Source: a virus (Duplodnaviria; Heunggongvirae; Uroviricota; Caudoviricetes). From it: DNA of 45,329 nt. Positions 15,634-36,430 of the stretch are shown here, one piece after another (the first letter of the stretch is position 1; the number at the start of each line of letters is the position of its first letter). Where the stretch lies: the IMG/VR virus record IMGVR_UViG_2541047734_000008, positions 1 through 45,329 of that record. One strand, given 5' to 3'. Below the pieces are notes generated by a model that was given only the letters and a program-made list of their open reading frames with translations, ran no database searches and was not told the DNA's origin. Both the position numbers and the translations under genes were made by a program.

Positions 15634-16370
15634 TTAAAGCGAGCGGATGCCCACGCTGATCAGATGTTCAGACAGATCCAGCTCCGGTTCACCACCATTG
15701 ACCAGCATCCGGCTCATTGCTGTAAACATCGCAACAGGGCCGTCGATTTTGGCTTCCAGCGTGGATTTATTCGGGAAGATATTGTCGTTTTTGTCCGGTT
15801 TTACCGTAACGTTAGACATCATCCAGTTCATGACCGGATGATTGCTGTGATGGAAACGCCCGGCATAGACCAGTGATTCCGTTTCCTTCATGGCCTCTGA
15901 CAGATTGCGAACCGTCTGCGGAACCTCCACCAGCGGTATCCCTTCTTCAGCCAGTGCCAGGCTGAACTGCATCGCGCTCCACGGGTCAAATCCCAGTTCC
16001 CTGAGGTTTTCACCACCAATCCATTCCAGTAAGTCACTTTTTATCTGAGCATGATCGATAACATCACCATCCGTCAGAATCAGCTTATCCATCTCCGCCC
16101 ACTTCCGGTAAAGTTCTGCCTGCTGCCGCGAGCATCGTTCCAGCCGTCCTTCCGGAAGCCAGAATTTAAAATCGGCATGAACATGCCCGTTATCCGTTCG
16201 CCAGAGTTTTGCCGCCGCACAGATATCAATCTTATGAGCAAGGTCAACGCCGACCCACATGGGATACGTTTTCAGCTCATGTCGTGGGGCAATGTATTCG
16301 CACTTCTCCCACTTAATCATGTCCATCCAGGCAGACTCTGCTGTTACCCACACATTCATGTGTTTGGTAA
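15634..16370 (-). pseudogene. Prophage terminase large subunit, C-terminal (nuclease-domain) fragment
   Basis: 241 aa ORF (..NVWVTAESAWMD..VGVDLAHKIDICAA..) aligns to the last ~243 aa of the intact island TerL; in-frame upstream codons ..NILTKH end at a stop inside island DNA; no ATPase domain. Confidence 0.85.
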
Positions 16371-16651
16371 GAATATTTCAAGTTTTTTAAAATCACCTGT
16401 ATATCAATCATTTAACATGAAAAAACAGTCTTTATAAATCATCGAGCAATACACAGCGCAATACACGTATCTGTATTGTTTTAATGCTGATACACACCGT
16501 TTTTTGATACAGTGATTCGACCTACCATCGCGAAGCATTTTTTATTTCTTGTGTGTAACAATCTGACGAGGTGAGCACTCAAAGAGATAAGAGGCAGTAG
16601 AAATTTCGATCCCCCCTGAATGCAATTTTTCGTATATATATACAAAACAGT

Positions 16652-16810
16652 GCGGGTTATGCGGGTTAGCGGGTTATCTTCGCGTGCTAAGTATTTTTTA
16701 CTCTTTAATATCAATACGTTAAAAAACAACGTATCTAAATATCAGCCAGAATGTAACCCGCAAGACATTCAAAATAACCCGCAAACACCACTCAAATAAC
16801 CCGCAAAAAC
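16652..16810. repeat. Repeat cluster near island left end: GCGGGTTA x3 tandem (16652..16677) and ATAACCCGCAA x3 in opposite orientation spaced ~22 bp (16755..16810), flanking an AT-rich core
   Basis: Directly visible 8-11 bp repeats in a ~520 bp noncoding stretch downstream of island terL. Confidence 0.7.
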
Positions 16811-16885
16811 ATCCCTGAAAGTGGGTGCCGATAATACTGAAAATTTATTCCATTAAATGAGCATTATCCTCTCTCATCCATTCCG

Positions 16886-18547
16886 TTACACACCATCAAA
16901 CGTCGCAAGCCGCTCTTTGTGGTTGTCGCTCATATCAAATGCAAATTCTTCATGCTCTGCCTGGAATGTGCCAAACGCCATCAGCGCCGCAACGCTCGGG
17001 TCTATCTTGTTGGATGATTTTTTCTTGTTCGGCTTGATATTGGCGTTCGCGTCACTCTGCATCACAACATTACTCATTGACCAGGCCAGCACCGGATCAC
17101 CACGATGCACAATCACCTTCCGGTTAACAAAAACTTCGAACGATTTCGCCGCCGGACTGAAACGAAGGTACGTTTGCGGGAACGGCTCCACCTCAAATCC
17201 TGCGCCCTGTAGCTGCGTCCTCAGGTGCGTGGCGTTCCATGTATCGAAACCCACCAGCCTGATATTGAAATTCTCTGCATCCGCCATGATGTCATCACGG
17301 ATACGGTCATAATCAATGCAGTCACCCGGTGTTGTGCGTATCCAGCCCGCCTTTACCCACTGGCGATAGATGGCGCGGTTTTTATTGGCGGGGTTCTGTA
17401 GCTGAAATTCCGGCAGATAGTGACGGGAAACCAGCATAATCTTTTTACCGACCGGAAAGGCATAGCACACGCTGGAAATATCGCTGGTTGATGATAAGTC
17501 CAGCCCCGCGTAGCACTCCTGCCCGTATAAATCCGCCTCCGCGAACGTTCCGGCGCACTCCGCCCATGCACCGTTACCCATCCACGGCGTGGCCCCCTGA
17601 CACCAGATATTGAATCGCTTGGTGAGCATTTCCACCCACTGCGACGGAATACCCCGCGCTTTCTGGATGGTTGAGGCCAGTTTTTCACGATCGACGGAAA
17701 CATCGATATTGGGATTCGCCTTTATCCACATCGCCGGATCGTCAACCTCGCTTTCATCATCCAGCTCGTAAATCAGCACGAACATGGATTCGTTCACCTC
17801 TTCACCATCCAGTATCTGGCAGCAATAGTCGTAGTGTTGTTTACAGGCTGAAACAACGTTGCTCCCCGATGTGGTGATGGCAAATAATAACCCCTCCGGA
17901 CGCGCCCCCATTCCCAGTTCAAGCGCGGAATAAACCCCGTTGTCAGGGTGCAGGTGATATTCATCCACAATGGCAAGACTCGGGTTTGTACCTTCAATGG
18001 TTGCCGCTTTTGCTGCCAGTGGCTTTAACAGGCTGTTGGTTTTCGGGTGTATCACCTTGTGTGCCTGAATATTTACCCGCTTTCGCAACGGTCGGGATAA
18101 AAGGCACATCTGACACGCATCATCAAACACGATCCGCGCCTGATCACGACTCACGGCGGCGGTGTAAATATCCTGCTGCCCGTTTTCCATAACCAGAAAC
18201 CAGTTAGCCAGGATAGCGGCGACCGTGGATTTGGCATTTTTTCGCGGCACTTCAATGAATGCGCTGGTGTATTTGCGCCGTCCGGTGGCCTTAACCTTAA
18301 AGCCCAGGATGCACGCAAAGGCGAACTGCTGCCACGGCTCCAGCTCAATGGGGCTACCGCGCATTGCGCCTTTTACGTGCGGACACACCCTGGAAAAGGC
18401 AATAAACCGCTCCACGACCTCCGGATCGAACGTGTAAAGGGGGTTTTCAAGGTCAGAAAAATACCGTTTAACGGCCTGTTTCAGTCGTTTACAGGCCGTA
18501 ATTTTGCCGTTTTTTACGCCTTCTGCGTACTCATGCCAGGCGGTCAA
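16886..18547 (-). CDS. Island terminase large subunit (intact)
   Basis: 553 aa; ATPase N-domain and nuclease C-domain; homologous along its length to the two prophage terL fragments. Confidence 0.9.
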   Translation of the reverse strand: MTAWHEYAEGVKNGKITACKRLKQAVKRYFSDLENPLYTFDPEVVERFIAFSRVCPHVKGAMRGSPIELEPWQQFAFACILGFKVKATGRRKYTSAFIEVPRKNAKSTVAAILANWFLVMENGQQDIYTAAVSRDQARIVFDDACQMCLLSRPLRKRVNIQAHKVIHPKTNSLLKPLAAKAATIEGTNPSLAIVDEYHLHPDNGVYSALELGMGARPEGLLFAITTSGSNVVSACKQHYDYCCQILDGEEVNESMFVLIYELDDESEVDDPAMWIKANPNIDVSVDREKLASTIQKARGIPSQWVEMLTKRFNIWCQGATPWMGNGAWAECAGTFAEADLYGQECYAGLDLSSTSDISSVCYAFPVGKKIMLVSRHYLPEFQLQNPANKNRAIYRQWVKAGWIRTTPGDCIDYDRIRDDIMADAENFNIRLVGFDTWNATHLRTQLQGAGFEVEPFPQTYLRFSPAAKSFEVFVNRKVIVHRGDPVLAWSMSNVVMQSDANANIKPNKKKSSNKIDPSVAALMAFGTFQAEHEEFAFDMSDNHKERLATFDGV

Positions 18548-18890
18548 GCTCGTCCTCTTCCTCTGTTTCCGGTGGATTTCTGCGGCGACTTACCGGGTCA
18601 AAACCCAGCAAAGAAGCCATTTTGATCATTATTCTTTCCGCGTCAGCCTTTGCGCTCAGGGCGGGGTTTCTGCTCTCGCTGCCCTGACTGTTAACAATGC
18701 TGAACCCGCGCGTGGCAAGGTCTTCGACGGCTTTGCGGTATATGGAGTAGTTAACGCAATACAGCTCCAGATTGCTCCAGTCGGCGGGGGTAAGGTCTTC
18801 CCGTCCGGAAAGCTGGCGCGATTTTTCCTTCCACTGCCTGACCGCGATTTCATCCAGGTAAGCGGGGGCTTTTGGTGGTCTTGCCATGTT
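18531..18890 (-). CDS. Island terminase small subunit (P27 family)
   Basis: Start placed at MARPPKAPAYLDE.. (compare prophage TerS MSGPPKTPP..); the ORF track's longer start at 19028 adds non-protein-like residues. Confidence 0.75.
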   Translation of the reverse strand, partial: NMARPPKAPAYLDEIAVRQWKEKSRQLSGREDLTPADWSNLELYCVNYSIYRKAVEDLATRGFSIVNSQGSESRNPALSAKADAERIMIKMASLLGFDPVSRRRNPPETEEEDELDRLA

Positions 18891-19175
18891 CTTTTTTCGC
18901 CCAATTATTTTCAAAAAAAATCCCGTGCACAAAAATTTGAGGAGGCGGTCGGTGTCCGGCAGGGACGGTTTCGTCCTGAAAACCTCCCCCACCCCCTCTG
19001 ACAGCCTCACCAGCGATTGCGAAAACATTCCATGACCTCGCGGTCACGGTCGGTTAATCGCTTCGCTGTGGTGCGTTCTGTGCGCCCTGTCCTGTTAGCT
19101 TTGTGCCCTGTCTCCTGTGTCTTCCATAAGTCACGCTGCCTTATCAGTCCACGTATCAGCCTGTTTTGCTCCTGT

Positions 19176-19616
19176 TCAGTCATCATCGCCATACATCCAG
19201 TCGTTACGATGTGCCGCCCGTTCTTCCTGCTCGCGATACATACCCGCCTTACGGTTCGCTTTCGTGGCTGGATCTTCCCGTGTCGTCTTACGGTTGTGGC
19301 ACGTCTGGCACAATGCCTGGTGGTTCCACTCAGGCCAGAAGAGAACATCACCGCCGCCATTGATGGGAATGATGTGATCCACCACAAGAGCTGGCGTATA
19401 AATCCCCTTAGCCAGACAACGCACGCATAACGGGTTTTTGCTCAGGTACAGGGCGCGGTATTTGTCCCACTGTCGGGAATACCCGCGCGCGCGGCGGTGT
19501 CCCCGTCTGGCATCCTCTGCACGCCATGCAGCCCGCCTGTGCTCTTCACACTTGCCGGACTTCACGCGCTTATTACAGCCCGGCTCAGTGCATCGCCTTA
19601 ATGGTTGCCACGGCAT
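19176..19616 (-). CDS. Island HNH endonuclease
   Basis: 146 aa, Cys-rich N-terminus, ..VDHIIPINGGGDV...NHQALCQTCHNRKT.. HNH motif; located upstream of terS. Confidence 0.8.
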   Translation of the reverse strand: MPWQPLRRCTEPGCNKRVKSGKCEEHRRAAWRAEDARRGHRRARGYSRQWDKYRALYLSKNPLCVRCLAKGIYTPALVVDHIIPINGGGDVLFWPEWNHQALCQTCHNRKTTREDPATKANRKAGMYREQEERAAHRNDWMYGDDD

Positions 19617-19915
19617 CAGTACACCCCCACATCACGATAAACCGACCAGAGCGCAGAAATAGCCATAGGCAGTTCAGACTGCTCCACTGGTGAAACTGCT
19701 TCCCTGTTCTCGTACAGGAAAGCGATGTACATCAGGCAACCAACACGCATTGCCGGGGTAAATTCCAGCCCGTCTTCAAAACGTTTCCCGATATGCTTCT
19801 GGCAGGCTTCCAGCGCCGCATCGGTATACATTTTCAGAAGTTCGCCTTCTCCGGAAAAGTCATCAAGGCGAAGATGTGCCCTGACCTCATCAGGTGTAAT
19901 TTTTTCTTCACTCAT
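19616..19915 (-). CDS. Island head-tail connector protein (gp6-like)
   Basis: Start at MSEEKITPDEVRAHLRLDD..; gp6-like. Confidence 0.6.
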   Translation of the reverse strand: MSEEKITPDEVRAHLRLDDFSGEGELLKMYTDAALEACQKHIGKRFEDGLEFTPAMRVGCLMYIAFLYENREAVSPVEQSELPMAISALWSVYRDVGVY

Positions 19916-21122
19916 CTTTTTCACCTTTAATTTCCACCGTCTGCTTCCATGCCTGGCTGAATTCGTCGCCACCTTCGCGCGGCGGCATCCCCTCACGTTC
20001 GCGGGCTTCGTTCGGATTCATGATCCCGTTCTTAATCCCTTTCTCATACGTGGCGTAACGCTCGGTAGGGGTGGCGCGCAGTAAATCGGCTGAATCAAAC
20101 TCAACCAGATAACGGGTACCAGGTACGGGAGAAGCCACCAGCAAAGCGGCCTTGATTTGCTGTTCGAAGTTCGCCAGCCACGGACGCATTGTCATAGTCA
20201 GAAACGCGCGGCTTGCCTCACTGAAATTGCTGTAGGTGCTGTTGCTGTATTCCTGAAGAAAAATCGGCGACACGTTGAACATACGGGCAATGTCTTCAAT
20301 GGAGAAGCGACGGGAGGCCAGCCATTCCGCATCCTGGTTACTCATCCCCAGTTGCCTGTAATCCATGCCCCCTTCAAGGATTGGCGTTTTTCCGGCATTT
20401 TTCGCCCCCTTATAGCGTTCCAGAGCATCTAATGCCTGTTTACCTTTCACGCCGTCCAGCCATTCGCCTGACGTGATAATCCCTGCCGCCATCATGCCAT
20501 CTTTCATAATGCTGGCTCCGTGGCGCTGTTGAGCAAGGCCAAGCCCCAGCGCCTCACGGCAAATCGTGACAGGGGAGCGCCCCAGAAAGCCATCATCCGA
20601 GGCATAGCGGAGATGCAGAACTTCTTCCTGTAAATACGTGCGTACCGTTCCTGTATAGGGTTCGGTGATGGTATAGCGGTATTTGTGTGCGCCTGTGCGT
20701 TCCGGTACAACACACCCCGGCGCATAAGGATGAAGTGATTTTGGCTGACCGTCCCGCCCCCACTCAATAACCGCATAGGCGTTACCGTTCAGCAGGCAGT
20801 GACGCATCATTGTGCGTTTAAACTGGTAAGGTGTCTGGCACGAATTAGGCTGCTCATTCAGCAGAATATCGACCGGGTGACTGTCCAGCCATTCCCGCGC
20901 CTCCCTGCCCTTGTCATTGCGTACCAGATACAGATAACACGGCATCGTGGCCACCGCCTCAGCGATGACAGAAACCGCGTTCATCACAGCAGGCAATGAT
21001 TCAGCCGTCCCGGCAGAAACATATTCTCCGGATCCGGTATTCGGTACGCCGGACAGCGCCAGAAAATCATCAATGGACAGGTTACGCAGATCGCTTTTTT
21101 TACGACTAAAAGGCCACCACAT
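19908..21122 (-). CDS. Island portal protein
   Basis: About 405 aa from MWWPFSRKKSD..; HK97-type portal, homologous in places to the prophage portal (..RPMILEMGLDW.. versus ..TPILEGGMDY..). Confidence 0.85.
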   Translation of the reverse strand: MWWPFSRKKSDLRNLSIDDFLALSGVPNTGSGEYVSAGTAESLPAVMNAVSVIAEAVATMPCYLYLVRNDKGREAREWLDSHPVDILLNEQPNSCQTPYQFKRTMMRHCLLNGNAYAVIEWGRDGQPKSLHPYAPGCVVPERTGAHKYRYTITEPYTGTVRTYLQEEVLHLRYASDDGFLGRSPVTICREALGLGLAQQRHGASIMKDGMMAAGIITSGEWLDGVKGKQALDALERYKGAKNAGKTPILEGGMDYRQLGMSNQDAEWLASRRFSIEDIARMFNVSPIFLQEYSNSTYSNFSEASRAFLTMTMRPWLANFEQQIKAALLVASPVPGTRYLVEFDSADLLRATPTERYATYEKGIKNGIMNPNEAREREGMPPREGGDEFSQAWKQTVEIKGEKDE

Positions 21123-21123
21123 A

Positions 21124-21684
21124 TCACAACCCCGCCAGTTCAGCCCAGCGATGACGATTATTTCCTGTCGGGCGTAATTCAGGGTGCTGTGCAAACAACG
21201 AACGGTGGGCAATCTCCACGCCGGATTCGGGATAAGCAGGCATCGACGTTATCGTGATTTCACGGAGTTCTGCGGCGGTAACAGTGCGCAGATACGGTTT
21301 TTGCGCGATATTCCACTCTTCGCATAATGCGCGAAAGCCAAAGCTCATTCCTGTAATGTCGCCACGCTCCACCAGCGTAAGCACATCTTTTCCAAGCTGG
21401 GTATCAGGCGGTGTCAGTTCAAAACGTAGCCCGGTGTTGTCCTCAGTCAGTACCAGTGTTCCGGATTTGGTGCGCCCCAGCAGTCGGGTATAGTCATGCT
21501 CATACAGGCAGCGCACATCATTACCCGCCGCCAGATAGTCAGCAAAAGCCCCCGGCGTGAACTGTTCGCGGAATTCGTCCCAGATAATTTCTGAAAGGCT
21601 GTTCCAGCGAACGGCATAACCCACCAGTTTTTTATCGCTGGCGGTCAGTTCAGATGTACGGATTTCAAAATCGGTATTTTGCAT
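21124..21684 (-). CDS. Island prohead protease
   Basis: Start at MQNTDFEIRTSEL.. (Met 73 of track ORF), ..KKLVGYAVRWNSLSE.. Confidence 0.8.
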   Translation of the reverse strand: MQNTDFEIRTSELTASDKKLVGYAVRWNSLSEIIWDEFREQFTPGAFADYLAAGNDVRCLYEHDYTRLLGRTKSGTLVLTEDNTGLRFELTPPDTQLGKDVLTLVERGDITGMSFGFRALCEEWNIAQKPYLRTVTAAELREITITSMPAYPESGVEIAHRSLFAQHPELRPTGNNRHRWAELAGL

Positions 21685-21733
21685 CGGTGTACTCCATAAA
21701 GCTGAAAAAGGAGGCCGAAGCCCCCTTTGCTCA

Positions 21734-22879
21734 TTACTTGCCAGCCTGAATTTCCAGAATCTTGATGGCGTTCGAATCCACCACACCACCGCCCAGATAT
21801 TTCTGGGTATAGATGTTAATGAATCCAGGTTCGCTGAAATCCGGACGGGTACGCGTACCGGTTTCATGGTCAACGATGAAATAACCGCGCTTAAAGTCAC
21901 CTACTGCAATCACACCGTCCGGCATAAATTCCAGATATTCAACCGGAAGCCCCAGCAGAGAATCAGGATCACCAGCCTGTAAACGATCGCGCCAGATGTA
22001 ATCACCAGTGGCATTTTTCAGTTTTTGTGCGGAGGCGGCTGTATTTGAGTTCATCACCCATACAGCTTTTTTGCGGTACTTATTGCGCAGCGTAAATTTC
22101 AGGTCAATCAGCATGTCGGCGCTGAGACTGCCAGTAACTTTTTTCGTCTGGAGCGTACCGAAAGGACGGGTTTTGTCGTTATCCGCAGTGCGCGGAAAAG
22201 CCAGGAAACCTTTAGCTTTTTTCTCGCCATCACCGGAAACCAGATCCGTTTCTTCGGTATCAACGAAAGTGTCGCCAATTTCAGAAGATAACCAGCTCAT
22301 AATATCGACTTCGGAAAAATCGATAATTTCCTGAGTGGTTTTTGGGTAAGCGTAGATCGGATACAGGCGGATACTGACTTCATTCAGTTTTGGGGTTGCC
22401 GTCTGGTTACGTGTAGTGCCTTCTTCACCGTGTTCAACGACCGCGCCCCCGGCAGAAACCAGTTGCTTAAATTCATTGCTGTGAATGGTTTTAACAGTAC
22501 AGATTTTACGCATCACCGATTCATCAGAAAGCTGACGCATAATTTCTCTGTTCAGTTCCGGGATAACCGTATAACCACCATCAGCCGGGACACTGCCGGA
22601 CAGGTTGCGGGTTTCCCCGGTCAGAATGTAAGAGCGCAGTTCGTCTTTGGTTATTTTCTCTTCGACGGAAACACCAGGCTGGTTACGTTCTTCATCAGCC
22701 ACAGATTCGAGGCGGGAAATTTCTGTGTCGAGGGAATCGGCTTTTGCACGCAGTTCATCAAACTGTTTGCCCTCGTCATCGTTCAGGCTGCGGTTTTCAC
22801 TGTCGGCTTTTTCCAGCAGGGATCGCATCTGGTTTTTCAGGGCGGTTTTTTGCTGGCGGAGTTCGATTAATTTCTTCAT
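21734..22879 (-). CDS. Island major capsid protein (HK97 family)
   Basis: 381 aa; coiled-coil delta domain then ..KGFLAFPRTADNDKTRPFGTLQ..GYFIVDHETGTR..; parallels the prophage capsid. Confidence 0.9.
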   Translation of the reverse strand: MKKLIELRQQKTALKNQMRSLLEKADSENRSLNDDEGKQFDELRAKADSLDTEISRLESVADEERNQPGVSVEEKITKDELRSYILTGETRNLSGSVPADGGYTVIPELNREIMRQLSDESVMRKICTVKTIHSNEFKQLVSAGGAVVEHGEEGTTRNQTATPKLNEVSIRLYPIYAYPKTTQEIIDFSEVDIMSWLSSEIGDTFVDTEETDLVSGDGEKKAKGFLAFPRTADNDKTRPFGTLQTKKVTGSLSADMLIDLKFTLRNKYRKKAVWVMNSNTAASAQKLKNATGDYIWRDRLQAGDPDSLLGLPVEYLEFMPDGVIAVGDFKRGYFIVDHETGTRTRPDFSEPGFINIYTQKYLGGGVVDSNAIKILEIQAGK

Positions 22880-23152
22880 GAAGGTTTTCTCGTATTGGTT
22901 AAGATTCAGGACGTGAAACCAACACGGAGGGAGCGCCGCCCGACACTCTCGGCATCTCGCAGATCAACCCGGCATCGCGCAGGGGTCAGGCGGCATTGTG
23001 GCGGCTCACGTCTGAGTGCCACACGCCAACATATACATAAAAATCAGTATGTAAACATCAGCCAGAATCACCGAACAACCTGGAACAACCACGAACAAAT
23101 AATTTACAAAACCTGAAAAAAAGACCCGGGAAAAATCCGGGCCTTTATCGCT

Positions 23153-23401
23153 TTATTGTTTCACTGGATCCCGCATTCTGCGTCTTATTTTCCACAGATA
23201 TTCGATCATCGCTTCCACCTGCTCACGGTTGGTTGCGAAAATTTCCCCGGTCAGTGAGCTACGCAGAAAATCATGATGATCCACAACAAACAACGCATCG
23301 GAAGAAAGCAGACGGCGATATTTTTTTGCTGTCGTGGTTTCCAGATCATCAAAACCATGAAACTTTTTATGTTGCTGGACTTCTTCAAATGTCACTGGCA
23401 T
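23153..23401 (-). CDS. Island hypothetical protein
   Basis: 82 aa ORF in operon orientation. Confidence 0.4.
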   Translation of the reverse strand: MPVTFEEVQQHKKFHGFDDLETTTAKKYRRLLSSDALFVVDHHDFLRSSLTGEIFATNREQVEAMIEYLWKIRRRMRDPVKQ

Positions 23402-23934
23402 GTATCCCCCTTTGCTGCCCGGCGCTGGCGCTTGTGCTTCTCATTCAGCGCCATCAGCCGCGTTTCTGCCTCCTGCTGTTCCTGTGGTGTCACTTCCCCA
23501 CATGGCTGGCCTTTCAGGTCGTAGCGTACCCCACCAGCAACCAGGGCGCGGTAATAGCGCGGAGACTGCGCATAAGATGCCAGCGTCGCACGTAATGCCC
23601 CCGGCCCGAATGCCAGCCCCCTGACGGCGAGATCCTGCATCAGGTCGTCGAATATTCCCACCTTAAGCGGCTTCGGTGCTTCCCTGTTGAATAAGTCAGG
23701 CCACATCTCAGTGAGGCGGTTAACGCGCCTGCGGTTTTTGCGCTGGCGTTTGGTCATATGCCGCCACGGTGTCACCCCTGTGGGCTGCCCTTTGCGGCTC
23801 TGCTGTGCGTTCTGATTGCCGGGTATCACTTTATGCGCCGATGTGGTTTTATCCCGCTCTTGCGCCGCCTGCGTCGTTTTCTGCGGCGTGCCGTAAATGC
23901 CTTTCGGTTTTCGGTTAATGGTCAGCTTTGTCAT
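23392..23934 (-). CDS. ProQ/FinO-domain RNA-binding protein (island)
   Basis: 180 aa, basic N-terminus, ..LTEMWPDLFNREAPKPLKVGIFDDLMQDL...RATLASYAQSPRYYRALVAGGVRYDLKGQP.. resembles the FinO/ProQ fold signature. Confidence 0.6.
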   Translation of the reverse strand: MTKLTINRKPKGIYGTPQKTTQAAQERDKTTSAHKVIPGNQNAQQSRKGQPTGVTPWRHMTKRQRKNRRRVNRLTEMWPDLFNREAPKPLKVGIFDDLMQDLAVRGLAFGPGALRATLASYAQSPRYYRALVAGGVRYDLKGQPCGEVTPQEQQEAETRLMALNEKHKRQRRAAKGDTCQ

Positions 23935-23970
23935 GCCTTCCCCTGTAATTACTCTGTTCGCTGTTGTGAA

Positions 23971-24396
23971 TTAAAACGGTATGTTATCCCCGTACAGGTC
24001 ATCGTGCTGGCCTGTCTGTTGTTTTGCCCTGTTCAGTGCGTCAGTAGCTTGGCTCTGCTGGCCTTTTTTGCCGCCCGGTCGCGCCGTTCGCGCACTGATT
24101 ACGCTGTCTGCGATGACCTGCCAGCCCTGCCGCGTTTCGCCGTTCTGGCCTGTCCACTGGCTCACCTGCATGTTACCCGCCACGCTCACCAGTTCGCCTT
24201 TGTGGTGCTTTGCCAGTGCGTCGGCCTGTCTGCCAAACGCCAGGACGGATAACCACATCGTCGCCGTTCCGTCATCTGCCTGGCTGCACGGCAGGGGAAC
24301 CGCCATACTCGCCATCGCCATTTGTGTCCCCTTGCTGGTGGTCTTTAACTGCGGGTCAGCCACCAGCCGCCCGTAAGCCGCTATCTGTGCTGTCAT
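23971..24396 (-). CDS. Single-stranded DNA-binding protein (island)
   Basis: 141 aa OB-fold-like with acidic C-terminal tail ..DDLYGDNIPF. Confidence 0.75.
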   Translation of the reverse strand: MTAQIAAYGRLVADPQLKTTSKGTQMAMASMAVPLPCSQADDGTATMWLSVLAFGRQADALAKHHKGELVSVAGNMQVSQWTGQNGETRQGWQVIADSVISARTARPGGKKGQQSQATDALNRAKQQTGQHDDLYGDNIPF

Positions 24397-24644
24397 GCTG
24401 TCTGCTCTCCGGTTTTAACGTTGATGGTTGTCACCTGTTCCGCTTCGGCAATCTCCCGCTCTGTCAGCGTGGCAAAATTTGCCGCCGCCGTGGTCATGAA
24501 TGCGCTTATCAGTTCGGGATGTGCTTTCGCGTATCCTTCTCCGGCATGGCGGTCTATTGTTCTGATTGCCACCTTTAAGGCATGCTCTGTCATGTCTAAT
24601 GCGCGATATTTTGGCGCTGTCTTATCTCTGGTTTTTCTGGTCAT
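24393..24644 (-). CDS. Island hypothetical protein
   Basis: 83 aa; overlaps ssb start. Confidence 0.4.
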   Translation of the reverse strand: MTRKTRDKTAPKYRALDMTEHALKVAIRTIDRHAGEGYAKAHPELISAFMTTAAANFATLTEREIAEAEQVTTINVKTGEQTA

Positions 24645-24648
24645 TCCT

Positions 24649-24848
24649 CACTGCTCCCCACTTTTACTACCCACTTTTTGAAATTACCCAACGTCTCCCC
24701 ACTTCTTTTTTTTGTGATTCTAACGTGATGTTTTTCAATGTATTTTTTATTCCCCACTTTTTGGGGTATATACAGGTGGGAAAGTGGGGAATCGCGTTTC
24801 AATTTTGTTAAATTCCCCACACTCCCCACTTTTACTACCCACTTTTTA
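24649..24848. repeat. Iteron cluster / candidate island replication origin next to rep
   Basis: TCCCCACTTTTACTACCCACTTTTT at 24649 and again at 24822; additional CCCCACTT copies in both orientations; AT-rich centre. Confidence 0.7.
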
Positions 24849-26261
24849 CAGTGGGCGCACGTCATCACCGTCAATAGCAATAACGCCATCACCTTCCAGC
24901 TTGTACAGCCAGCGCCGGAAGTGTTTCATCTCATACCCCAGCTTTTTCATATCATCGCGCAACAACGGAATTGTGCATTTATCGCCGCGCTGTGTGCGTG
25001 AACGGATACAGCCCCATAGCGCGGCATGATTCTCCGTCTTGTTCCCGGCTTCCTCGATGCGCTCCAGTTCAACAGGTGGGCGCGGCTTATCCACAACCAC
25101 CAGCGACGTGATTAACTCCCCGTCAGTGTCGGTAAAAAGCTCTACCACGCGTAAATCATATGCAGCCTCTTTCAGTTCCTCCGCGTCCTTCATTTTGGTA
25201 CAGGAGATAACCAGGGCTTCACTGTCCGCACCTTCACGGCGAATACGGTATTCAGCGTCCAGAGATGCACGGAATGCACTGGAACCACGCGCTCCCTTTG
25301 TTTCATCCTTGCCGGAATGGTGAACCACCAGCACCGTGGCCCCTGTGCGTCGTTTCAGTTCGTCACATCCACGGATAAACGCCCCCATATCCCGCGCGTC
25401 ATTTTCATCATTACCGCCAAAACACCGCGCCAGCGTATCCAGAATAATCATGCGTACCGGTTTACCCGTTTCCCTTTCAACCTGGCGGGAAGCGATGACC
25501 ATTTCATCGACATCAAGCGGGACTGCCGGAAAAATCGGGCGGTTTACCAGGTACAGATTTTCCACCCGTTTATCATTAACGATTTCCCATGCCTTGATAC
25601 GGCGGGGGACACCAATGCCACCTTCACCGACAACATACATCACCGAACCATGCGCCACCCTGCGGCCTCCCCAGTGGCGACCCGTGGCAACATGACACGC
25701 CCAGGAACACGCGAGGAACGATTTATAGGAACCGCTCGCGCCGTATGTGCTGCACAATGAATTAGCCGGAATCACGCCCTTAACGACATAATCAAGCTGT
25801 GTGTCGTATCCTGCAGATCCAATACTCATTGGTAGCGTGGTTTTTCGCTGGCTGTATTGCTCGTCAGTAAGTATTTCCCCGCGCTCTGCCTGTTCGCGGA
25901 TCCGTTGCAGGTAGTCGTGCCAGTTCTCCAGCTTCTGGTTGTGCATTCCCTCAGGGTAATAATTCGCATCCCGTACACCTGCCGCCGCCAGCTTTTGCCC
26001 GATAGCATTAATATTTGACGGCTTGATGTGGCCTGCCTTGTACAGCCGGACACAATAGCGACCATCGTCGATAATTTTCAGGTCTGCCAGTTCGTCAAGC
26101 TGGCTGTCTCCAAGCCATACAGGCGGAACATTGTCGCCAGCAAGTCGCCCGTCCTGCTCCTGCCATTGTTTCGCGTGCGCCCAGGCATCACTACCCGCAA
26201 AAATAATGACTTCGGTCATTTTGTCGTGCGGCTGTTTTTTTAAGTTCGGTGCCAGTTTCAT
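24846..26261 (-). CDS. Island replication initiator: primase/helicase-type Rep (RecA-like AAA ATPase)
   Basis: 471 aa; Walker A-like GASGSYKSF, Walker B MIILDTL; sits beside iterons as PICI pri-rep genes do. Confidence 0.7.
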   Translation of the reverse strand: MKLAPNLKKQPHDKMTEVIIFAGSDAWAHAKQWQEQDGRLAGDNVPPVWLGDSQLDELADLKIIDDGRYCVRLYKAGHIKPSNINAIGQKLAAAGVRDANYYPEGMHNQKLENWHDYLQRIREQAERGEILTDEQYSQRKTTLPMSIGSAGYDTQLDYVVKGVIPANSLCSTYGASGSYKSFLACSWACHVATGRHWGGRRVAHGSVMYVVGEGGIGVPRRIKAWEIVNDKRVENLYLVNRPIFPAVPLDVDEMVIASRQVERETGKPVRMIILDTLARCFGGNDENDARDMGAFIRGCDELKRRTGATVLVVHHSGKDETKGARGSSAFRASLDAEYRIRREGADSEALVISCTKMKDAEELKEAAYDLRVVELFTDTDGELITSLVVVDKPRPPVELERIEEAGNKTENHAALWGCIRSRTQRGDKCTIPLLRDDMKKLGYEMKHFRRWLYKLEGDGVIAIDGDDVRPL

Positions 26262-26557
26262 TTTTTCCCCCTGAATCCGTTAAGCATTTTTCTTATGGCC
26301 TGAATATTTGCCCGTGCCTTCTCTTTGCTGGTGGGCTGATTGCGCGGCGCGGTCTGTACCAGGGAAAAATCACGCCGGAACTGATAAACAGGCATCACAC
26401 AGTCATAGCCGTACCCATCACGGCGGTAAATAACGCACCGTCCCGCCACGCTTTTAATCGTTACCGTGCCGCCATAGTTATCCCGGAAAATATCGCCGGG
26501 GCGGATTTCAGGCCGAACGGAGCCGCTGGCAGTAAAGCCAGAATTTTTCTGTTTCAT
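26258..26557 (-). CDS. Island hypothetical protein
   Basis: 99 aa ORF, operon context. Confidence 0.4.
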   Translation of the reverse strand: MKQKNSGFTASGSVRPEIRPGDIFRDNYGGTVTIKSVAGRCVIYRRDGYGYDCVMPVYQFRRDFSLVQTAPRNQPTSKEKARANIQAIRKMLNGFRGKK

Positions 26558-26562
26558 GGTTT

Positions 26563-26772
26563 TTATTCCTCTGCGCGGGCCTTGTTGTGTATTTCCATAA
26601 CCGCGTTTAATTCATCAATAACCGGGGTTAACAGAGTGCTGAAAGCAGAAAATAAATCCCCCCCCTGTTCGGCATGAACTTCGGTTAATTTAATTAATAC
26701 TGCTTTCATTTCCAGTGCCCGGTTTAATGCATTCTCAGAATGAATAAGAACATCGAAAGGGATTTTATCCAT
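26563..26772 (-). CDS. Island hypothetical protein
   Basis: 69 aa ORF. Confidence 0.35.
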   Translation of the reverse strand: MDKIPFDVLIHSENALNRALEMKAVLIKLTEVHAEQGGDLFSAFSTLLTPVIDELNAVMEIHNKARAEE

Positions 26773-27025
26773 GGCTTACATCCTCCGTGAATTTTCTTCT
26801 GTACCGTGCCTCTGCCACATATTCCGCATAGTCCGACGCAATATTGAGAATATCGCTACCCGTTCCTGAATGTTCGGCGGTTTCCAGTAAAAAACTTGCA
26901 GCTTTTACCATGTCAGCAACACATAACAGCGCAATATCTGTATCTTCCGGTGCGCCATCAAATTCCTGTTTCAGGGCATTAAAACGATCATCACGCATAA
27001 CCCCCCCCATTTTCACAATCAGCAA
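26765..27025 (-). CDS. Island hypothetical protein
   Basis: 86 aa ORF. Confidence 0.35.
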   Translation of the reverse strand: MLIVKMGGVMRDDRFNALKQEFDGAPEDTDIALLCVADMVKAASFLLETAEHSGTGSDILNIASDYAEYVAEARYRRKFTEDVSHG

Positions 27026-27230
27026 TTAGGATGGCTTTAGCCTCATTCAGTGCCATATCAGCGGTAAGCTGTGCGTAGGCCAGCGAATGGGGGATTATTT
27101 CCCCTGTATATTCCGTCTCTCTGGTAATGTGTTTTTCTGCGGTTGCTGCCGTGCATGAAATATCAATCAGCGCGTGCATCAGCGTTTTGATGGCTTCGGC
27201 GGCTGCGTCCGGACGGGTGTTATTGCACAT
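26991..27230 (-). CDS. Island hypothetical protein
   Basis: 79 aa ORF. Confidence 0.35.
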   Translation of the reverse strand: MCNNTRPDAAAEAIKTLMHALIDISCTAATAEKHITRETEYTGEIIPHSLAYAQLTADMALNEAKAILIADCENGGGYA

Positions 27231-27426
27231 GGCGCACCCCCTGACGAATACGGGCGGCGAATACCATCACACAGCCAGCCGGGGATTGCTGGCGTGCTTC
27301 CTGTTCGCTGGTGGCCTCAATGGTAATCACGCGCGGTTGTGCCGTGCTCAGGGCGATAAAACGCCAGATATATTTATTCAGGTTGTGCGAGTCCCGCCCT
27401 TGCGGGTGTGTGGTATGATTTCTCAT
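27220..27426 (-). CDS. Island small protein, first gene of leftward operon
   Basis: 68 aa from MRNHTTHPQGRDSHNLNKYIWRFIALSTAQP..; GAGG RBS; the track's 358 aa extension upstream is not protein-like. Confidence 0.45.
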   Translation of the reverse strand: MRNHTTHPQGRDSHNLNKYIWRFIALSTAQPRVITIEATSEQEARQQSPAGCVMVFAARIRQGVRHVQ

Positions 27427-27502
27427 AGCTACCTCGATACTCTTGCTATCGTTGGTGGTTAGACGCCCTGCATGTGTTGCGAGCACTGCGGGGCGTTGCT
27501 TA

Positions 27503-27603
27503 ATTTGAGTGACAAAACTCAAACTGTGCGCACAGATTAAAATCATGTGTGCGCACATGTCAATACTTAACATCTCATTTTTTTTGCTGTATTGTGTGCG
27601 CCC
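27503..27603. promoter_or_regulatory. Divergent regulatory region with palindromic operators TGTGCGCACA
   Basis: TGTGCGCACA at 27525..27534 and 27549..27558 (within CATGTGTGCGCACATG), half-site GTGTGCGC at about 27593; lies between divergent gene starts 27426 and 27632. Confidence 0.55.
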
Positions 27604-27631
27604 ATAAAGTCCATTTAAGTGAGGTGCATCA

Positions 27632-27829
27632 ATGTCTAGCGGTAACACAAACAACAAATCAGCAAAGAAAAATATTCGATTCCCACATGAGCTTATAGAT
27701 GGGATTGATGCCAGCGTTGAACAAGAAAAATTAACTAATCCTAGTGCTAATTTTTCCGCATGGGTCTTAGATGCCTGTGGACGCAAATTAAAATATGAAC
27801 AGCGCCGGAAGGCCAAAGAATCAGAATAA
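27632..27829 (+). CDS. Small ribbon-helix-helix (Arc/MetJ-like) DNA-binding protein, candidate island regulator
   Basis: 65 aa; ..KKNIRFPHELIDGIDASVE..NFSAWVLDACGRKL.. beta-strand plus two helices pattern. Confidence 0.5.
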   Translation: MSSGNTNNKSAKKNIRFPHELIDGIDASVEQEKLTNPSANFSAWVLDACGRKLKYEQRRKAKESE

Positions 27830-27871
27830 TCACTATCAGCGCCGTGGTGTGAGTAACTACGGCGCATTGCT

Positions 27872-28060
27872 ATGCAGGACAACACAATGACCGATAAAGA
27901 ATTGACCAAAACATTATCACCGACACGGAAAAGACGGCGCAGAAAGATAGAGCATGAATCAGAAAGATTCGCACCTTGTTCGTTTGCTCTTGAGAAATTC
28001 CTTAAAGAGCGCAGGAAAAAGCTCTCGTTGCAAACCCTGGAACGAACCAAATCTGACTGA
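27872..28060 (+). CDS. Island hypothetical basic protein
   Basis: 62 aa ORF downstream of the RHH gene. Confidence 0.35.
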   Translation: MQDNTMTDKELTKTLSPTRKRRRRKIEHESERFAPCSFALEKFLKERRKKLSLQTLERTKSD

Positions 28061-28126
28061 TCACATTGCCCACCAGCCGCAAATGTGGCATTGTTGGTGA
28101 TGCTTTTGTTTTCCCTTGTTCCCACT

Positions 28127-28155
28127 GGCGACCCTTTTGCGGTCGCCTTTGTTTT
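28127..28155 (+). terminator. Intrinsic terminator
   Basis: GGCGACC-CTTTTGC-GGTCGCC followed by TTTGTTTT. Confidence 0.6.
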
Positions 28156-28251
28156 GCCTGTTATCCGGCAATAGTGGCGCTTCGTCACCTGTCTGATATA
28201 ATTCCACAGCTTATATTCATTTTTTGCGCAGTAGGTTAATTGTTCGCAAGG

Positions 28252-28282
28252 GCGCTCCGGCAACGGGGCGCTTTTTGTTTTT
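28252..28282 (+). terminator. Intrinsic terminator (GNRA-loop hairpin)
   Basis: GCGCTCCG-GCAA-CGGGGCGC followed by TTTTTGTTTTT. Confidence 0.6.
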
Positions 28283-28440
28283 ACCCACCAGCACAATAAA
28301 AATCTTCATTTTCCATTTTTGTAAAATTTCATGCTTTCCGGACGACTGGTCATATGTCATTTTTTAGCAGAAGATTTTGCCTTGCTGGTGGGTAGCTTCC
28401 CGGTCAACACGATGTACCGTATAATCAACACCGCGTGTGG

Positions 28441-29019
28441 TTACTGAATACGCTCACCAAAGTAAAACTCAGGCTGGTATTCACGTATCAGCCTTTTTTC
28501 TTCTTCCTCCAGCTCACGCTTTTTGCGCTTACATGCCTGTAGCTCCCTCCCCTTCTCACTGGCACTTATCTGGTATTGCTCTTTGCGGCGGGAAAAATCC
28601 TGTAATGCGCCCCACGGGATACCATAAGCCCCCGTTTTTCTGATACCCGGTATCACATTTCTGAATACCCAGTTACTGAAACGATGAGCAAATGTGCCAG
28701 GCGTCGTTGCTTTGCGGCTGCGGGCTATTAGTTTGTAGAAACCTGACTCGGAGATAATGCTCATATTCTGATTTCCTCCGGGGGTGTAAGTTAAATTTAC
28801 TCCCTTTTCGTCATCATCAAGCATCTGCAACGCCGTACGCGAATTGGTCAGTTCCAGCGCAGCACAAACATCCTTTGCAACAAACCACGGATCGCCGTTT
28901 AGATACACCACACGAACATCCACGCCATCAAAGCGCAGAACGACCAGATCACGAATATCACAGAATTTTTTCACATGACGTGCGTCACCCTTGCCCGTCA
29001 CGGCAATATTTTTATTCAT
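28441..29019 (-). CDS. Bro-N domain protein (antirepressor-like)
   Basis: 192 aa; ..FDGVDVRVVYLNGDPWFVAKDVCAALEL.. Bro-N signature. Confidence 0.7.
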   Translation of the reverse strand: MNKNIAVTGKGDARHVKKFCDIRDLVVLRFDGVDVRVVYLNGDPWFVAKDVCAALELTNSRTALQMLDDDEKGVNLTYTPGGNQNMSIISESGFYKLIARSRKATTPGTFAHRFSNWVFRNVIPGIRKTGAYGIPWGALQDFSRRKEQYQISASEKGRELQACKRKKRELEEEEKRLIREYQPEFYFGERIQ

Positions 29020-29076
29020 TGCTTTTTACCTCACATACAAAAAACCCCGCATTGCGTGGTGCGGGGTTGTCGGTAA

Positions 29077-29355
29077 TTACTTATTGGCGTTTTTGTATGG
29101 GCTGTTTACTTCCTTTACTCCTGGCGGATGCATAACCCACCAGAGCACATCAGAGAGCAACCAGGAAACAGACACTTTCCCTAAATGAGCACGAGCAGGA
29201 AATGCTCCCTCCTGTTCAAGTACCCAACGTCTGCTTCTTGAAAGCCCGGTACGATTGGCACACTCATGTTCGCGTATACGGCGATCATACGGTTCGCCAT
29301 GATCTTTCAGAATCTGAATGCGTTCTTCGGGTGTAGGATAAATAAATTTTTGCAT
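29077..29355 (-). CDS. AlpA-family transcriptional regulator (second copy)
   Basis: Start at MQKFIYPTPEE..; AlpA-type HTH. Confidence 0.6.
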   Translation of the reverse strand: MQKFIYPTPEERIQILKDHGEPYDRRIREHECANRTGLSRSRRWVLEQEGAFPARAHLGKVSVSWLLSDVLWWVMHPPGVKEVNSPYKNANK

Positions 29356-29418
29356 AAAAATATCACCTATAAAAAAACCCGCCAAAAGACGGGTTGATTA
29401 TATCTCATTTAATTTAGC

Positions 29419-29652
29419 TCAGGGTTTCCATTCACCTTTTACCCATTCCAGCACCTCAGATAAGCGCCAGACTTTTGTTTGTGGGCCAATACATATTTTT
29501 CGTGGAAATTTTCCTTCCTTTTCAAGTAACGATCTGTGTCTCCTGCCAAGAGCGGTTAACCATGCACATTCATCTTCCTTAATCATCCTGTCGATTGTTT
29601 CATCATTTTCAAGTTCTTCACGCGTAACTATTTGAATCATTACTGTCACCAC
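29419..29652 (-). CDS. AlpA-family transcriptional regulator
   Basis: 77 aa; ..KICIGPQTKVWRLSEVLEWVKG..; immediately downstream of int. Confidence 0.7.
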   Translation of the reverse strand: MVTVMIQIVTREELENDETIDRMIKEDECAWLTALGRRHRSLLEKEGKFPRKICIGPQTKVWRLSEVLEWVKGEWKP

Positions 29653-30841
29653 TAATTTGCTTATTCAGATAGTCGTACCACCAGTTCATAGCTTCTTTTT
29701 TTCTGTCCATATACTGGCTTCTGTTATAAACCCCGGCAACACCGCCTAATGTGTGCCCAAGCAACTGTTCAACCACATTATGTTCAAAACCATGATCACT
29801 TAGTTTTGTGGCAAACACTCTTCGCATATCATGCGCCGTCCATTTCTCCGAGTGTTTCATCCTTTTCCATGTCTTACCGATAGTTACGCTTGCCGTACAC
29901 TGACGCATATCAAACCCAATCACATTTTCTTTGTTACCTGTTATTTTTTTTAACGTAACTAACCAGTTAAACATGCCATCAGGAATCGGTCTGATTATTT
30001 CCCTGCCATTTTTGCTATGATCAGCGGGAACGCGCCATAATTTCTTATCAAAATCCCACTCTACCCAGGACGACAGTAATACTTCTGACAGTCGACAACC
30101 AAAAACTACCAGGAAACGTAAAATAATTCGGTTTTCATATGATAATTCGTGATTGTCATAATCAGTATTAATACTTCGCCATAAATCTCTGATTTCATCA
30201 TCTGTTAAAACCCTGCTTCTTCGCGCAGACTTTTTTCCCACATCACAGACCTCAAGATCATCAATTTCATGACTAATCGCGTATTTTCTTACCCTACAAA
30301 ATTTAAGCGCCTGTTTTGATATACGCAACAAAGCTCCGGCCTGTACAGGTGCTACTTTTTTTATTTTGTCAAAACACTTAATCCACATAGATATAGAGCA
30401 ATCACTAAGTGGTACATGACCAATCACCGGATAAATATGTTTACCAAAGCACTGCCTGATATGTTCTGCTCCCCTACGCTTATCCATTGCATAATTATCA
30501 AGCCAGTATTCAAGTGCCTCACGAACGGTAACAGGTTGCAAGGTGGCTTCCCGTTCAATTTTTATCTGAATCCGTGGATCTCTGCCCTCCGCAAGCCAGG
30601 TTCGACACTGATCGCGCATCTCTCTCGCTGATTTGAGACTCAGATCAGGATATTTTCCAAGTGTCAGCCAGATGGGCGCGGTTCCCCTTCCCGCCAGTCT
30701 GTAAAAGAAAACAAAACTAACACATCCGTATTTACTGACCCGTACCGAAAGCCCGTTACCATCAGCGATGGTTTCCTGCCTCTCACTCCTGCGTCCAAGC
30801 AGGGAACGAAGTTTTTTATCGCTCAGTTTGTTTAGCGCCAT
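29618..30841 (-). CDS. Tyrosine integrase (P4-type)
   Basis: Start at MALNKLSDKKLRSL..; C-terminal catalytic region ..HDMRRVFATKL...LLGHTLGGVAGVYNRSQY..; adjacent to the island boundary. Confidence 0.9.
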   Translation of the reverse strand: MALNKLSDKKLRSLLGRRSERQETIADGNGLSVRVSKYGCVSFVFFYRLAGRGTAPIWLTLGKYPDLSLKSAREMRDQCRTWLAEGRDPRIQIKIEREATLQPVTVREALEYWLDNYAMDKRRGAEHIRQCFGKHIYPVIGHVPLSDCSISMWIKCFDKIKKVAPVQAGALLRISKQALKFCRVRKYAISHEIDDLEVCDVGKKSARRSRVLTDDEIRDLWRSINTDYDNHELSYENRIILRFLVVFGCRLSEVLLSSWVEWDFDKKLWRVPADHSKNGREIIRPIPDGMFNWLVTLKKITGNKENVIGFDMRQCTASVTIGKTWKRMKHSEKWTAHDMRRVFATKLSDHGFEHNVVEQLLGHTLGGVAGVYNRSQYMDRKKEAMNWWYDYLNKQISGDSNDSNSYA

Positions 30842-31012
30842 GTGATTTATAACCCGTTTTTGCAATACACAGTGCAATACACAAATGATGAAAACAGCCA
30901 GAACCTTCCAGAAAAAACAAAAACGACGAACAAGAAAAAATCTTTTTCTTTCATTTGGTTACTAAAAAAATCAGGACAGGTCGCACTGTTGTTACGGCGT
31001 GATGTTACTTTC

Positions 31013-32040
31013 TTGGTAAAAAAATTCACCCGCGCAGAGACCTGTTCTTTCGCTTTTTTCGCCAGGCGACGCAGATCATCCCAGCGTTTACAGATGCCCA
31101 GGCCGGGATTCGCTTTCTGCCAGACCGTTTCATCAAACGGATCATCTCCCTCATCGAGGGTGTAAATAATCGCAAAGTAGGAGTCGTCTTTTACCGCGCC
31201 CTCCACGTCGCTGTTATAGCCACGCAATACCTTGATGGCGTAATCACGCTGCTCGTAACAAATCCCTTCCTTGTTAAACCCTGCCGTGGTGATACCAAAT
31301 AAAAGGGACTGCAGACGGGCACCGGTTGCCGTTTCCAGAACGTCCCACACGTCACGGGTTTTATGTGCATGCAGCTCATCAATAATGGCGCAGTGGATGT
31401 TCAGACCATCCAGGTTGTTTGCATCCGAAGAAAGCGGTTCAAATTTTGATGCGCTCTGCTCCTGGTAAATCGCCAGCTTGTTGAAATCAAACAACCGCCC
31501 GAGTGTCGACCGGGCTTTTCTGACCATATTTTTGGCGTCTTCAAACACGATTCTGGCCTGGTCACGCGTGGTTGCGGCTGAATACACCTCAGCTCCGCCT
31601 TCACCATCTGCCCCCGTCATATACAGGCCGATACCCGATGACAGAGTTGATTTTGCGTTTTTACGGGCGACTTCGTTGTACGCCGTCCGGAACCGGCGCA
31701 CCATCACCGGACGTCCGCTGCCATCGCTGCGCATGACAACTTCCCCGGTCTCTTCATTGACCAGCGGAATGACAAAACCAAAAATATTAATGAGGATAAA
31801 TACATGCCAGTCCATCAACTCAATGGGCTGGCCTGCCAGCGCCCCTTTTACATGAGGCACAAATTTGTAGAAATTCAGGATGTGCTGCGCACGGGGTTCA
31901 CTGAAATAAATCCCCCGCTCTTCGCCGTACTTCAGATCATCAAGAAAACGCTGGCAGGCCAGGCGGACAAATTCGCCAGCAACAATTTCTCCTGCAACAA
32001 CACGTTCGGCGTAGCGGATCCCGTCAGCCACTTTTGCCAT
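31013..32040 (-). pseudogene. Prophage terminase large subunit, N-terminal (ATPase-domain) fragment
   Basis: 397 aa ORF with Walker-type ATPase region; homology to island TerL residues 1 to ~310 ends at ..ARVNFFTKK, then about 45 unrelated codons run into island DNA near the integrase. Confidence 0.85.
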
Positions 32041-36016: not shown

Positions 36017-36092
<76 letters not shown>

Positions 36093-36094
36093 AT

Positions 36095-36171
<77 letters not shown>

Positions 36172-36172
36172 A

Positions 36173-36249
36173 CTGGACCGCCACCGGGGACTCGAACCTC
36201 GCACACTCAACTTAAAGGGTTGACGCTCTTTCCTGATGAGCTAGTGGCG
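36173..36249 (-). tRNA. Atypical tRNA-like gene, anticodon UUU (Lys) by position, with C at position 33
   Basis: Acceptor CCGCCAC/GTGGCGG, anticodon stem TCAAC/GTTGA, loop CCTTTAA, T-loop TTCGAGT with one T-stem mismatch, CCA encoded. Confidence 0.5.
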
Positions 36250-36250
36250 G

Positions 36251-36326: not shown

Positions 36327-36430
36327 CGGGCGCAGGATAATAACGTTACGAAATCAATGTTGCAAGCATTCAAAAATCACCCTTATCTCCTCCACTAGCG
36401 CATTCACCATGTCTATCCGAGATAAGTGGC

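Follow-up and report, generated by a model that had tools for sequence, protein, structure and literature searches.

A probable Rep-dependent replication origin beside the initiator gene of a capsid-forming PICI

Directly behind the rep gene of a satellite island lies a short non-coding gap crowded with repeats, which raises the question of whether this is the place where the island begins its replication. The gap occupies the full 204 nt from the stop codon of rep (24846-24848, minus strand) to the next open reading frame on that strand, which starts at 24644, and corresponds to positions 24645-24848 of the window, the whole stretch of 45,329 nt of viral DNA analyzed here. PGAP annotates no gene in the gap at a 99.9% identical locus. 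A sequence-only reading of the window had described this arrangement as the one expected of an island origin. That view is supported by the position of the repeats, their layout, an A/T-rich centre, the conservation of the layout among relatives, the covariation of the repeats with residue 447 of Rep, and the exchange of rep and repeats as a cassette. On these sequence comparisons, the gap is very probably the Rep-dependent vegetative replication origin of a capsid-forming PICI (cf-PICI).

The island is a cf-PICI inserted in the terL gene of a prophage. It spans 16371-31012 (14.6 kb) and encodes Int, two copies of AlpA, Bro-N, an Icd-like protein, DUF4222, Rep, SSB, a ProQ/FinO-like protein, capsid, S78 protease, portal, connector, HNH, TerS, and TerL (16886-18547). 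The integrase gene is at 29618-30877, and the genes around the gap are all on the minus strand. An integrase, an alpA-type regulator, rep, and a capsid and packaging set of its own, with no tail or lysis genes, make up the gene content described for cf-PICIs (bioRxiv 10.1101/2022.09.08.507074). The head genes of the island (19908-22879) follow the order capsid, protease, portal, connector, HNH, TerS, TerL, with which the PGAP annotation of the island of E. coli 042 agrees, and this differs from the order TerS, TerL, portal, protease, capsid of the surrounding prophage.

The surrounding prophage is HK97-like, and its interrupted terL is left as two minus-strand fragments at 30847-32040 and 15634-16359. 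Joining the flanks at the 7-nt direct repeat TTGGTAA (16364-16370 and 31013-31019) yields one open terL frame (...ARVNFFTKHMNVWV...). The rebuilt junction is found at 100% identity in many E. coli genomes, with 905 genomes covering at least 80% of it, and the occupied int-terL junction is found in 36 genomes, E. coli 042 among them. An intact TerL of the prophage is possible only once the satellite excises. The repeat GCAATACACAG[C/T]GCAATACAC (16447-16467 and 30862-30882) was considered as the att core and rejected, because translation across the junction puts the crossover at TTGGTAA. Its copies lie about 100 nt inside each island end, each a tandem of GCAATACAC, and they are more likely candidate arm-type binding sites of the integrase, which has an Arm-DNA-bind_3 domain, than an att core. 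Elsewhere, the tail-gene region of the prophage contains an IS66-family element on the opposite strand (2319-4735) with three plus-strand open reading frames, the last of which encodes a 537-aa DDE_Tnp_IS66 transposase. The prophage also carries (36018-36327, 39464-40150) four tRNA genes (Gly, Thr, Lys, Met) just downstream of the Q antiterminator gene (36522-37217, minus strand), and a QueH-like epoxyqueuosine reductase gene.

The repeats of the gap are copies of a short iteron with the consensus AAAGTGGG[G/T]A on the rep strand. About nine good copies and three to four degenerate ones, ~9-13 nt long with a spacing of 9-13 nt, are arranged in three groups: a direct set at the rep stop codon, a central divergent pair around TATATA, and a direct set past an A/T-rich spacer. 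The Rep-proximal set (24812-24848, minus strand) consists of three direct copies on the rep strand, with the cores GTGGGT (24837-24842), GTGGGG (24824-24829), and GTGGGG (24815-24820). Its first iteron adjoins the stop codon, which agrees with the placement of the repeats immediately downstream of rep in the sequence-only reading. The central module (24749-24792) is composed of a direct iteron, AAAGTGGGGAAT (24749-24760, rep strand), a centre, GTATATACA (24766-24774, plus strand), a partial inverted copy, GGTGGG (24775-24780), and an inverted iteron (24781-24792). The two full iterons form a perfect 12-nt inverted repeat, ATTCCCCACTTT and AAAGTGGGGAAT, on either side of the centre, so that TATATA is flanked by a divergent pair at a fixed 26 nt, and both outer iteron sets share one orientation. 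The A/T-rich spacer (24705-24748) is T-rich on the plus strand, with 21-nt windows of up to 67-86% A+T. Beyond it, the Rep-distal set (24647-24704, minus strand) holds the cores GTGGGG (24697-24702), a degenerate TTGGGT (24688-24693), GTGGGT (24669-24674), GTGGGG (24656-24661), and GTGAGG (24647-24652), the last of which overlaps the ribosome-binding site of the next gene.

A repeat search of the window finds an exact 26-nt direct repeat, CTCCCCACTTTTACTACCCACTTTTT, with one copy in the Rep-distal set (24654-24679) and the other in the Rep-proximal set (24822-24847). The shorter motif CCCCACTT has five exact copies in the window, where 1.48 are expected, and all five are inside 24656-24831, four on the plus strand and one on the minus strand. 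The earlier description of a 26-bp unit at both ends of the stretch, typed there with 25 of its 26 nt, and of further copies in both orientations is accurate. Its description of the stretch as AT-rich holds in a weaker sense, as 24649-24848 has 39% G+C against 51% for the window, an A+T content (61%) that is only moderate. The gap as a whole is strongly T-rich on the plus strand, and its 25-mer of lowest stability, centred at 24739-24740, is within the top 1% of the window. The A/T-rich spacer and the TATATA centre together are a candidate unwinding element. Rfam gives no match in the gap, and its sole trace nearby is a sub-threshold SAM-VI match inside rep.

The gene that precedes the gap, rep (24846-26261, minus strand), encodes a 471-aa initiator-helicase that PGAP names "helicase RepA family protein". 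An N-terminal alpha/beta domain (residues ~1-130) is followed by a RecA-type AAA_25 ATPase (152-320; Pfam E=3e-44) with the Walker A motif GASGSYKS around K180, and by a C-terminal winged helix (residues ~408-471; coding region 24849-25040, minus strand). The closest solved relative in a PDB sequence search is RSF1010 RepA (1g8y, E=2.5e-5). The model of full-length Rep is of low confidence (mean pLDDT 61); its best Foldseek matches are T7 gp4 and ATPases of the RecA/Rad51/KaiC type, and, the model being poor, they are used solely to back the RecA-type core. The model of the C-terminal domain (last ~65 residues) is better, with a mean pLDDT of 84, and folds into three helices and a beta-hairpin that match DtxR, PcaR, the LexA DNA-binding domain, the winged helices of MCM4 and MCM8, and DnaD-N at TM scores of 0.57-0.68. 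In the models, residue 447 (His447, codon 24921-24923) is at the N-terminal end of the recognition helix, 448-457. Since the AAA_25 domain, RSF1010 RepA, and the RecA, Rad51, and T7 gp4 matches all point the same way, Rep is assigned to the RecA type and not to the SF3/AAA+ type of the SaPIs and EcCICFT073. From sequence and models, Rep is thus predicted to be a RecA-type helicase fused to a C-terminal winged helix.

The gene had been called a primase/helicase, and the helicase half of that name stands on the AAA_25 domain and the 1g8y match. The primase half does not. No primase domain is demonstrable in Rep, where the N-terminal ~130 residues have only weak, sub-threshold links to primases, namely RepB_primase_C at E=0.044, below the cut-off, and a partial match of residues 3-135 to phrog_864, "DNA primase", and the word is therefore dropped from the description. 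In the most similar genome, ETEC1734 (L001:20547-21962), which is 99.9% identical over the origin region, the annotation gives rep as a pseudogene that has an internal stop, and the iterons are intact.

The layout of the gap is conserved among related loci. Eight loci of Rep homologues from E. coli, Salmonella, and Enterobacter, with 60-88% identity, were fetched, and 80 further loci were added from other Enterobacterales species; the layout was counted in the 81 loci that have four or more iteron cores, which come from many Enterobacterales genera. Behind the rep stop codon, 63 of these 81 show the full tripartite layout. In the direction of rep, this layout begins with two to four direct iterons that lie at the stop codon or overlap it, followed by a spacer of ~25 nt, continues with one inverted iteron, a (T/C)(G/A)TATATA centre, and one direct iteron, and ends with an A/T-rich spacer of 45-70 nt and two to five more direct iterons. 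The module of inverted iteron, TATATA, and direct iteron is kept in 76 of the 81 loci, and its 26-nt spacing, exact in 67 of those, sets the two cores about three helical turns apart. Three loci with a longer gap of ~410-480 nt (L003, L006, L007) have a second central module, inverted iteron, GCGTATATATA, direct iteron, ~200-330 nt past the rep stop codon. Among 5426 complete E. coli genomes, 1621 have a match to the 901-nt region that surrounds the gap, and searches of the phage database with this region, in near and distant modes, return no matches. The lack of a deposited phage matching the region suggests that the element is chromosomal and satellite-like.

While the layout is fixed, the iteron core varies between islands, and it does so in concert at all copies of an array. 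The window and L008 have GTGGGG, many E. coli islands and Xenorhabdus have GTGAGG, Enterobacter and Kosakonia have GTGCGG, and Serratia, Pectobacterium, and Morganella have GTGGGGG. The fourth base of the core follows residue X of the Rep motif K-X-F-x-R-W-L, which is His447 in the window. Over all loci, Asn at this position goes with A (36/36), His with G (11/12), Ser or Gly with C (9/9), and Lys with G (28/29), and both exceptions, one His and one Lys, are loci without an iteron array. Classical preferences likewise place Asn with adenine, and His or Lys with guanine. Among the last 120 columns of the alignment, column 447 is the best predictor, with 95.6% of the iteron-class entropy in 5 states; the runner-up reaches 83% in 10 states. 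Reps of the His type belong to several separate lineages, each nearest a different non-His type. The window Rep and those of P0030 and P0061 are identical over the last ~70 residues save for H447N, and the first is accompanied by GTGGGG iterons, the other two by GTGAGG.

The covariation of residue 447 with the iteron base marks the repeats as binding sites of the Rep winged helix, and we infer that those of the gap are bound in this way. The coding region of the C-terminal domain and the iterons are physically adjacent, and linkage could account for part of the covariation. The specificity for a single residue and its recurrence in separate lineages weaken this explanation but do not abolish it. 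At the Salmonella locus L007, copies of GTGAGG, GTGGGG, and ATGGGT are mixed beside a Rep of the Asn type, and this locus may be a recombinant or decaying origin.

Rep and its repeats also change together on a larger scale. Everywhere outside ~24430-26237, the window island shares 93-99% identity with the cf-PICIs of E. coli 042 and APEC17. The differing block consists of an 83-aa gene, the gap, and rep, and is 98% identical to the classical PICI at tRNA-Pro of ETEC1734. One recombination arm of this cassette is the island ssb gene (23971-24396, minus strand; Pfam SSB E=4e-16), downstream of the origin and in a homology block of 23971-24429. The other is the DUF4222 gene (26258-26557, minus strand), immediately upstream of rep. 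The open reading frame of 83 aa within the swapped cassette (24393-24644, minus strand; phrog_1231) does not encode the iteron binder, because the gene is absent from L003, L006, and L009, which share the iterons.

Other islands hold other initiators in the same slot. In EcCICFT073, a D5_N/DUF5906/Pox_D5 initiator is followed by iterons of the GGTAGAC type, and in the cf-PICIs of 042 and APEC17 the initiator is of the DUF927 type, followed in 042 by GCGGGTTA/TAACCCGC iterons. The DUF4222 gene is conserved beside all three initiator types. The helicase bodies, AAA_25 with wHTH, D5_N/SF3, and DUF927, have in common an N-terminal domain of ~130 aa, with 62% and 42% identity. Each initiator thus travels with its own iterons, as a cognate rep-ori pair predicts, and on these alignments rep and origin appear to be a self-contained cassette that is moved between islands by recombination. 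Across E. coli PICIs and cf-PICIs, the rep slot (24430-26237 in the window; L090:2242-3996; L092:9672-11792) accommodates at least three unrelated helicase bodies. EcCICFT073 was considered as a carrier of the window-type Rep and rejected, since the published primer matching L004 and L005 falls in the shared DUF4222 gene and the Rep body differs.

The island has a second array at a distance from rep. Six of the ten copies of TAACCCGC in the window (1.3 expected) lie at 16640-16810. Three are in tandem on one strand and three are ~22 nt apart on the other, with an A/T-rich stretch between them and TATATATATA alongside. This motif is unrelated to the rep-adjacent iteron of the window island; it also forms the rep-adjacent iterons of the DUF927-type island of E. 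coli 042, which has the distal array too. Judged by this match, the second array is apparently cognate to a DUF927-type initiator that the window island no longer encodes; it could be orphaned, could serve as a target for replication in trans, or could act like the crr of P4. A wider and rather doubtful proposal is that the island carries origin arrays for two initiators, the TAACCCGC array being a trans target or a leftover crr-like site, and that specificity is set largely through residue 447. If this were true, the TAACCCGC array would let a co-resident relative replicate the island in trans, or would have remained after a swap of the rep-ori cassette, and one substitution at 447 (H/N/S/K) with a concerted change of the iterons would create a new specificity or incompatibility type.

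The second array also bears on the only serious rival to the origin reading, in which the repeats of the gap are Rep-binding sites for copy-number control, autoregulation, or incompatibility, acting by handcuffing or titration, and replication starts elsewhere, for example at 16640-16810. Iteron arrays of plasmids have dual roles, with initiation and copy control often together, and an island with another origin-like array, complete with its own TATATATATA element, offers an alternative start. The TAACCCGC motif of that array, however, is cognate to the DUF927-type initiator of the sister islands and not to the resident Rep. Moreover, the classical PICIs with a window-type Rep (L001, L091) show only the rep-adjacent array within the stretches examined, and a conserved divergent pair around TATATA next to an A/T tract is the design of an opening site. 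Control of copy number as the sole role of the repeats is therefore improbable.

It is less probable still that the repeats are transcription-factor operators for the downstream operon (the 83-aa gene, ssb, the proQ-like gene, and capsid) and are unrelated to replication. The gap does separate co-directional genes, the final iteron-like copy runs into the ribosome-binding site of the gene that follows, and TATATA could serve as a -10 box, but a scan of the gap for promoters and terminators finds neither a sigma-70-like promoter nor a terminator. The repeats also covary with a Rep residue and move with rep, and the downstream gene differs among loci with the same iterons. A packaging signal of the island, either cos/pac or sites bound by TerS, would suit an element that encodes its own HNH, TerS, and TerL, and TerS sites are often repeated. 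The same cassette of rep and iterons is found, however, in classical PICIs that encode neither TerS nor TerL (L001, L091), which excludes a packaging site for practical purposes, and the repeats follow Rep, whereas the packaging module is common to sister islands with other iterons. A chance cluster in low-complexity, T-rich intergenic sequence, which would fit the lack of window-wide enrichment of YCCCACTTT with one mismatch (20 matches found, 22 expected, 7 of the 20 inside the repeat region), has a negligible probability and is excluded by the exact 26-nt repeat, the five exact 8-mers within 176 nt, and a layout conserved with concerted sequence change over 81 loci.

If the gap is the Rep-dependent origin, initiation can be pictured from the arrangement of its parts. 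Induction by a helper phage and excision of the island would come first, and the winged helix of Rep would then bind the iterons, with His447 at the N-terminal end of the recognition helix reading the fourth base of GTG-G-GG. Hexamers of the RecA-type Rep would assemble on either side of the easily melted TATATA and A/T tract and open it, and Rep would load itself as the replicative helicase. The SSB of the island, encoded just downstream, would coat the exposed strands, and priming would fall to the N-terminal domain of Rep or to a host primase.

An origin at this position places the cis-acting replication site of a satellite replicon that is very common among complete E. coli genomes. The pairing of residue 447 with the fourth iteron base is a recognition rule that could predict cross-replication or incompatibility between co-resident satellites, and it could serve the engineering of orthogonal satellite replicons. 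The behaviour of rep and origin as a cassette explains how replication modules come to be common to capsid-forming and classical PICIs.

Among known replicons, the classical iteron plasmids (pSC101, F, R6K, and RK2) differ from the window. Their origins have DnaA boxes and iterons of 17-22 bp, and their Rep is a non-helicase protein with two winged helices (WH-WH). The window has no DnaA box within one mismatch in 24645-24848, and its Rep is a helicase, which sets it apart from this class.

The IncQ plasmid RSF1010 is related in its helicase, as its ATPase core is the nearest solved relative of that of Rep, and both origins combine iterons with an A/T-rich stretch independently of DnaA boxes. 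In RSF1010, the RepA helicase, the RepB' primase, and the iteron binder RepC are three proteins that act at an oriV with 20-bp iterons. In the window, a single protein unites the helicase with the predicted iteron-binding domain and the iterons measure ~9-13 nt, so the origin is not of the IncQ class.

The satellite P4 resembles the window in its protein architecture. Its alpha protein joins an SF3 helicase and a primase domain to C-terminal origin binding, and type I iterons, TGTTCACC, are found at both ori and crr. Like the window island, P4 is a satellite replicon whose helicase and C-terminal origin-binding functions reside in a single multi-domain protein, and the DUF927-type sister islands resemble the ori and crr of P4 in having two separated arrays of the same iteron. 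The window differs in its repeats: TGTTCACC is absent from the gap, with window matches only at 2937 and 37525, which is the chance level, and the second array does not match the resident Rep.

The SaPIs provide a parallel for the domain order. Their Reps load themselves as helicases and read the iterons through a C-terminal winged helix (Qiao et al. 2022, PMC9371898). Like the window, SaPI origins (Ubeda et al.; PMC9371898) belong to an initiator-helicase with a C-terminal winged helix, have short iterons just after rep, and place these on both sides of an A/T-rich centre, some in opposite orientation. SaPI Reps are of the SF3/AAA+ type, whereas the window Rep is RecA-type (SF4-like) with no detectable sequence homology to them, and in the window the outer iteron sets have one orientation and only the central pair is divergent.

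Among the closest counterparts are the origins of the EcCI PICIs of Gram-negative bacteria. Fillol-Salom et al. (2018, PMC6092414) describe, 3' of rep in these PICIs, two iteron sets around an A/T-rich region, and they report plasmid maintenance by the EcCICFT073 rep-ori segment that needs rep and drops sharply when ori is deleted. These elements are found in the window too: the gap is directly 3' of the initiator gene and has two iteron sets and an A/T-rich region. The window initiator ends, like those of the SaPIs, in a winged helix, which in its case is predicted to recognize the iterons. The comparison with origins of PICI and P4-like elements that the sequence-only reading had proposed supports the PICI design, the type I iterons of P4 being absent. 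EcCICFT073 has the same slot, in the order DUF4222 gene, rep, ori, small open reading frame, and ssb, and the N-terminal ~134 residues of its initiator are 62% identical to those of the window Rep. It differs in having a D5_N/DUF5906/Pox_D5 (SF3-type) body and GGTAGAC iterons, against AAA_25 with a winged helix and GTGGGG in the window. As the tested EcCICFT073 has this different helicase (D5_N/SF3), function is carried over to the window by likeness of layout and not by homology of the initiator body. In the PICI and SaPI origin papers compared here, no mention was found of a RecA-type Rep (as opposed to SF3), of a central module of fixed geometry, or of the covariation of one residue with one base. 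EcCI042, an island named in the same study (PMC6092414), has a Rep of the window family and the same layout, with GTGAGG iterons. The kind of origin is already known from the published PICI design, and the window extends that design to a RecA-type initiator.
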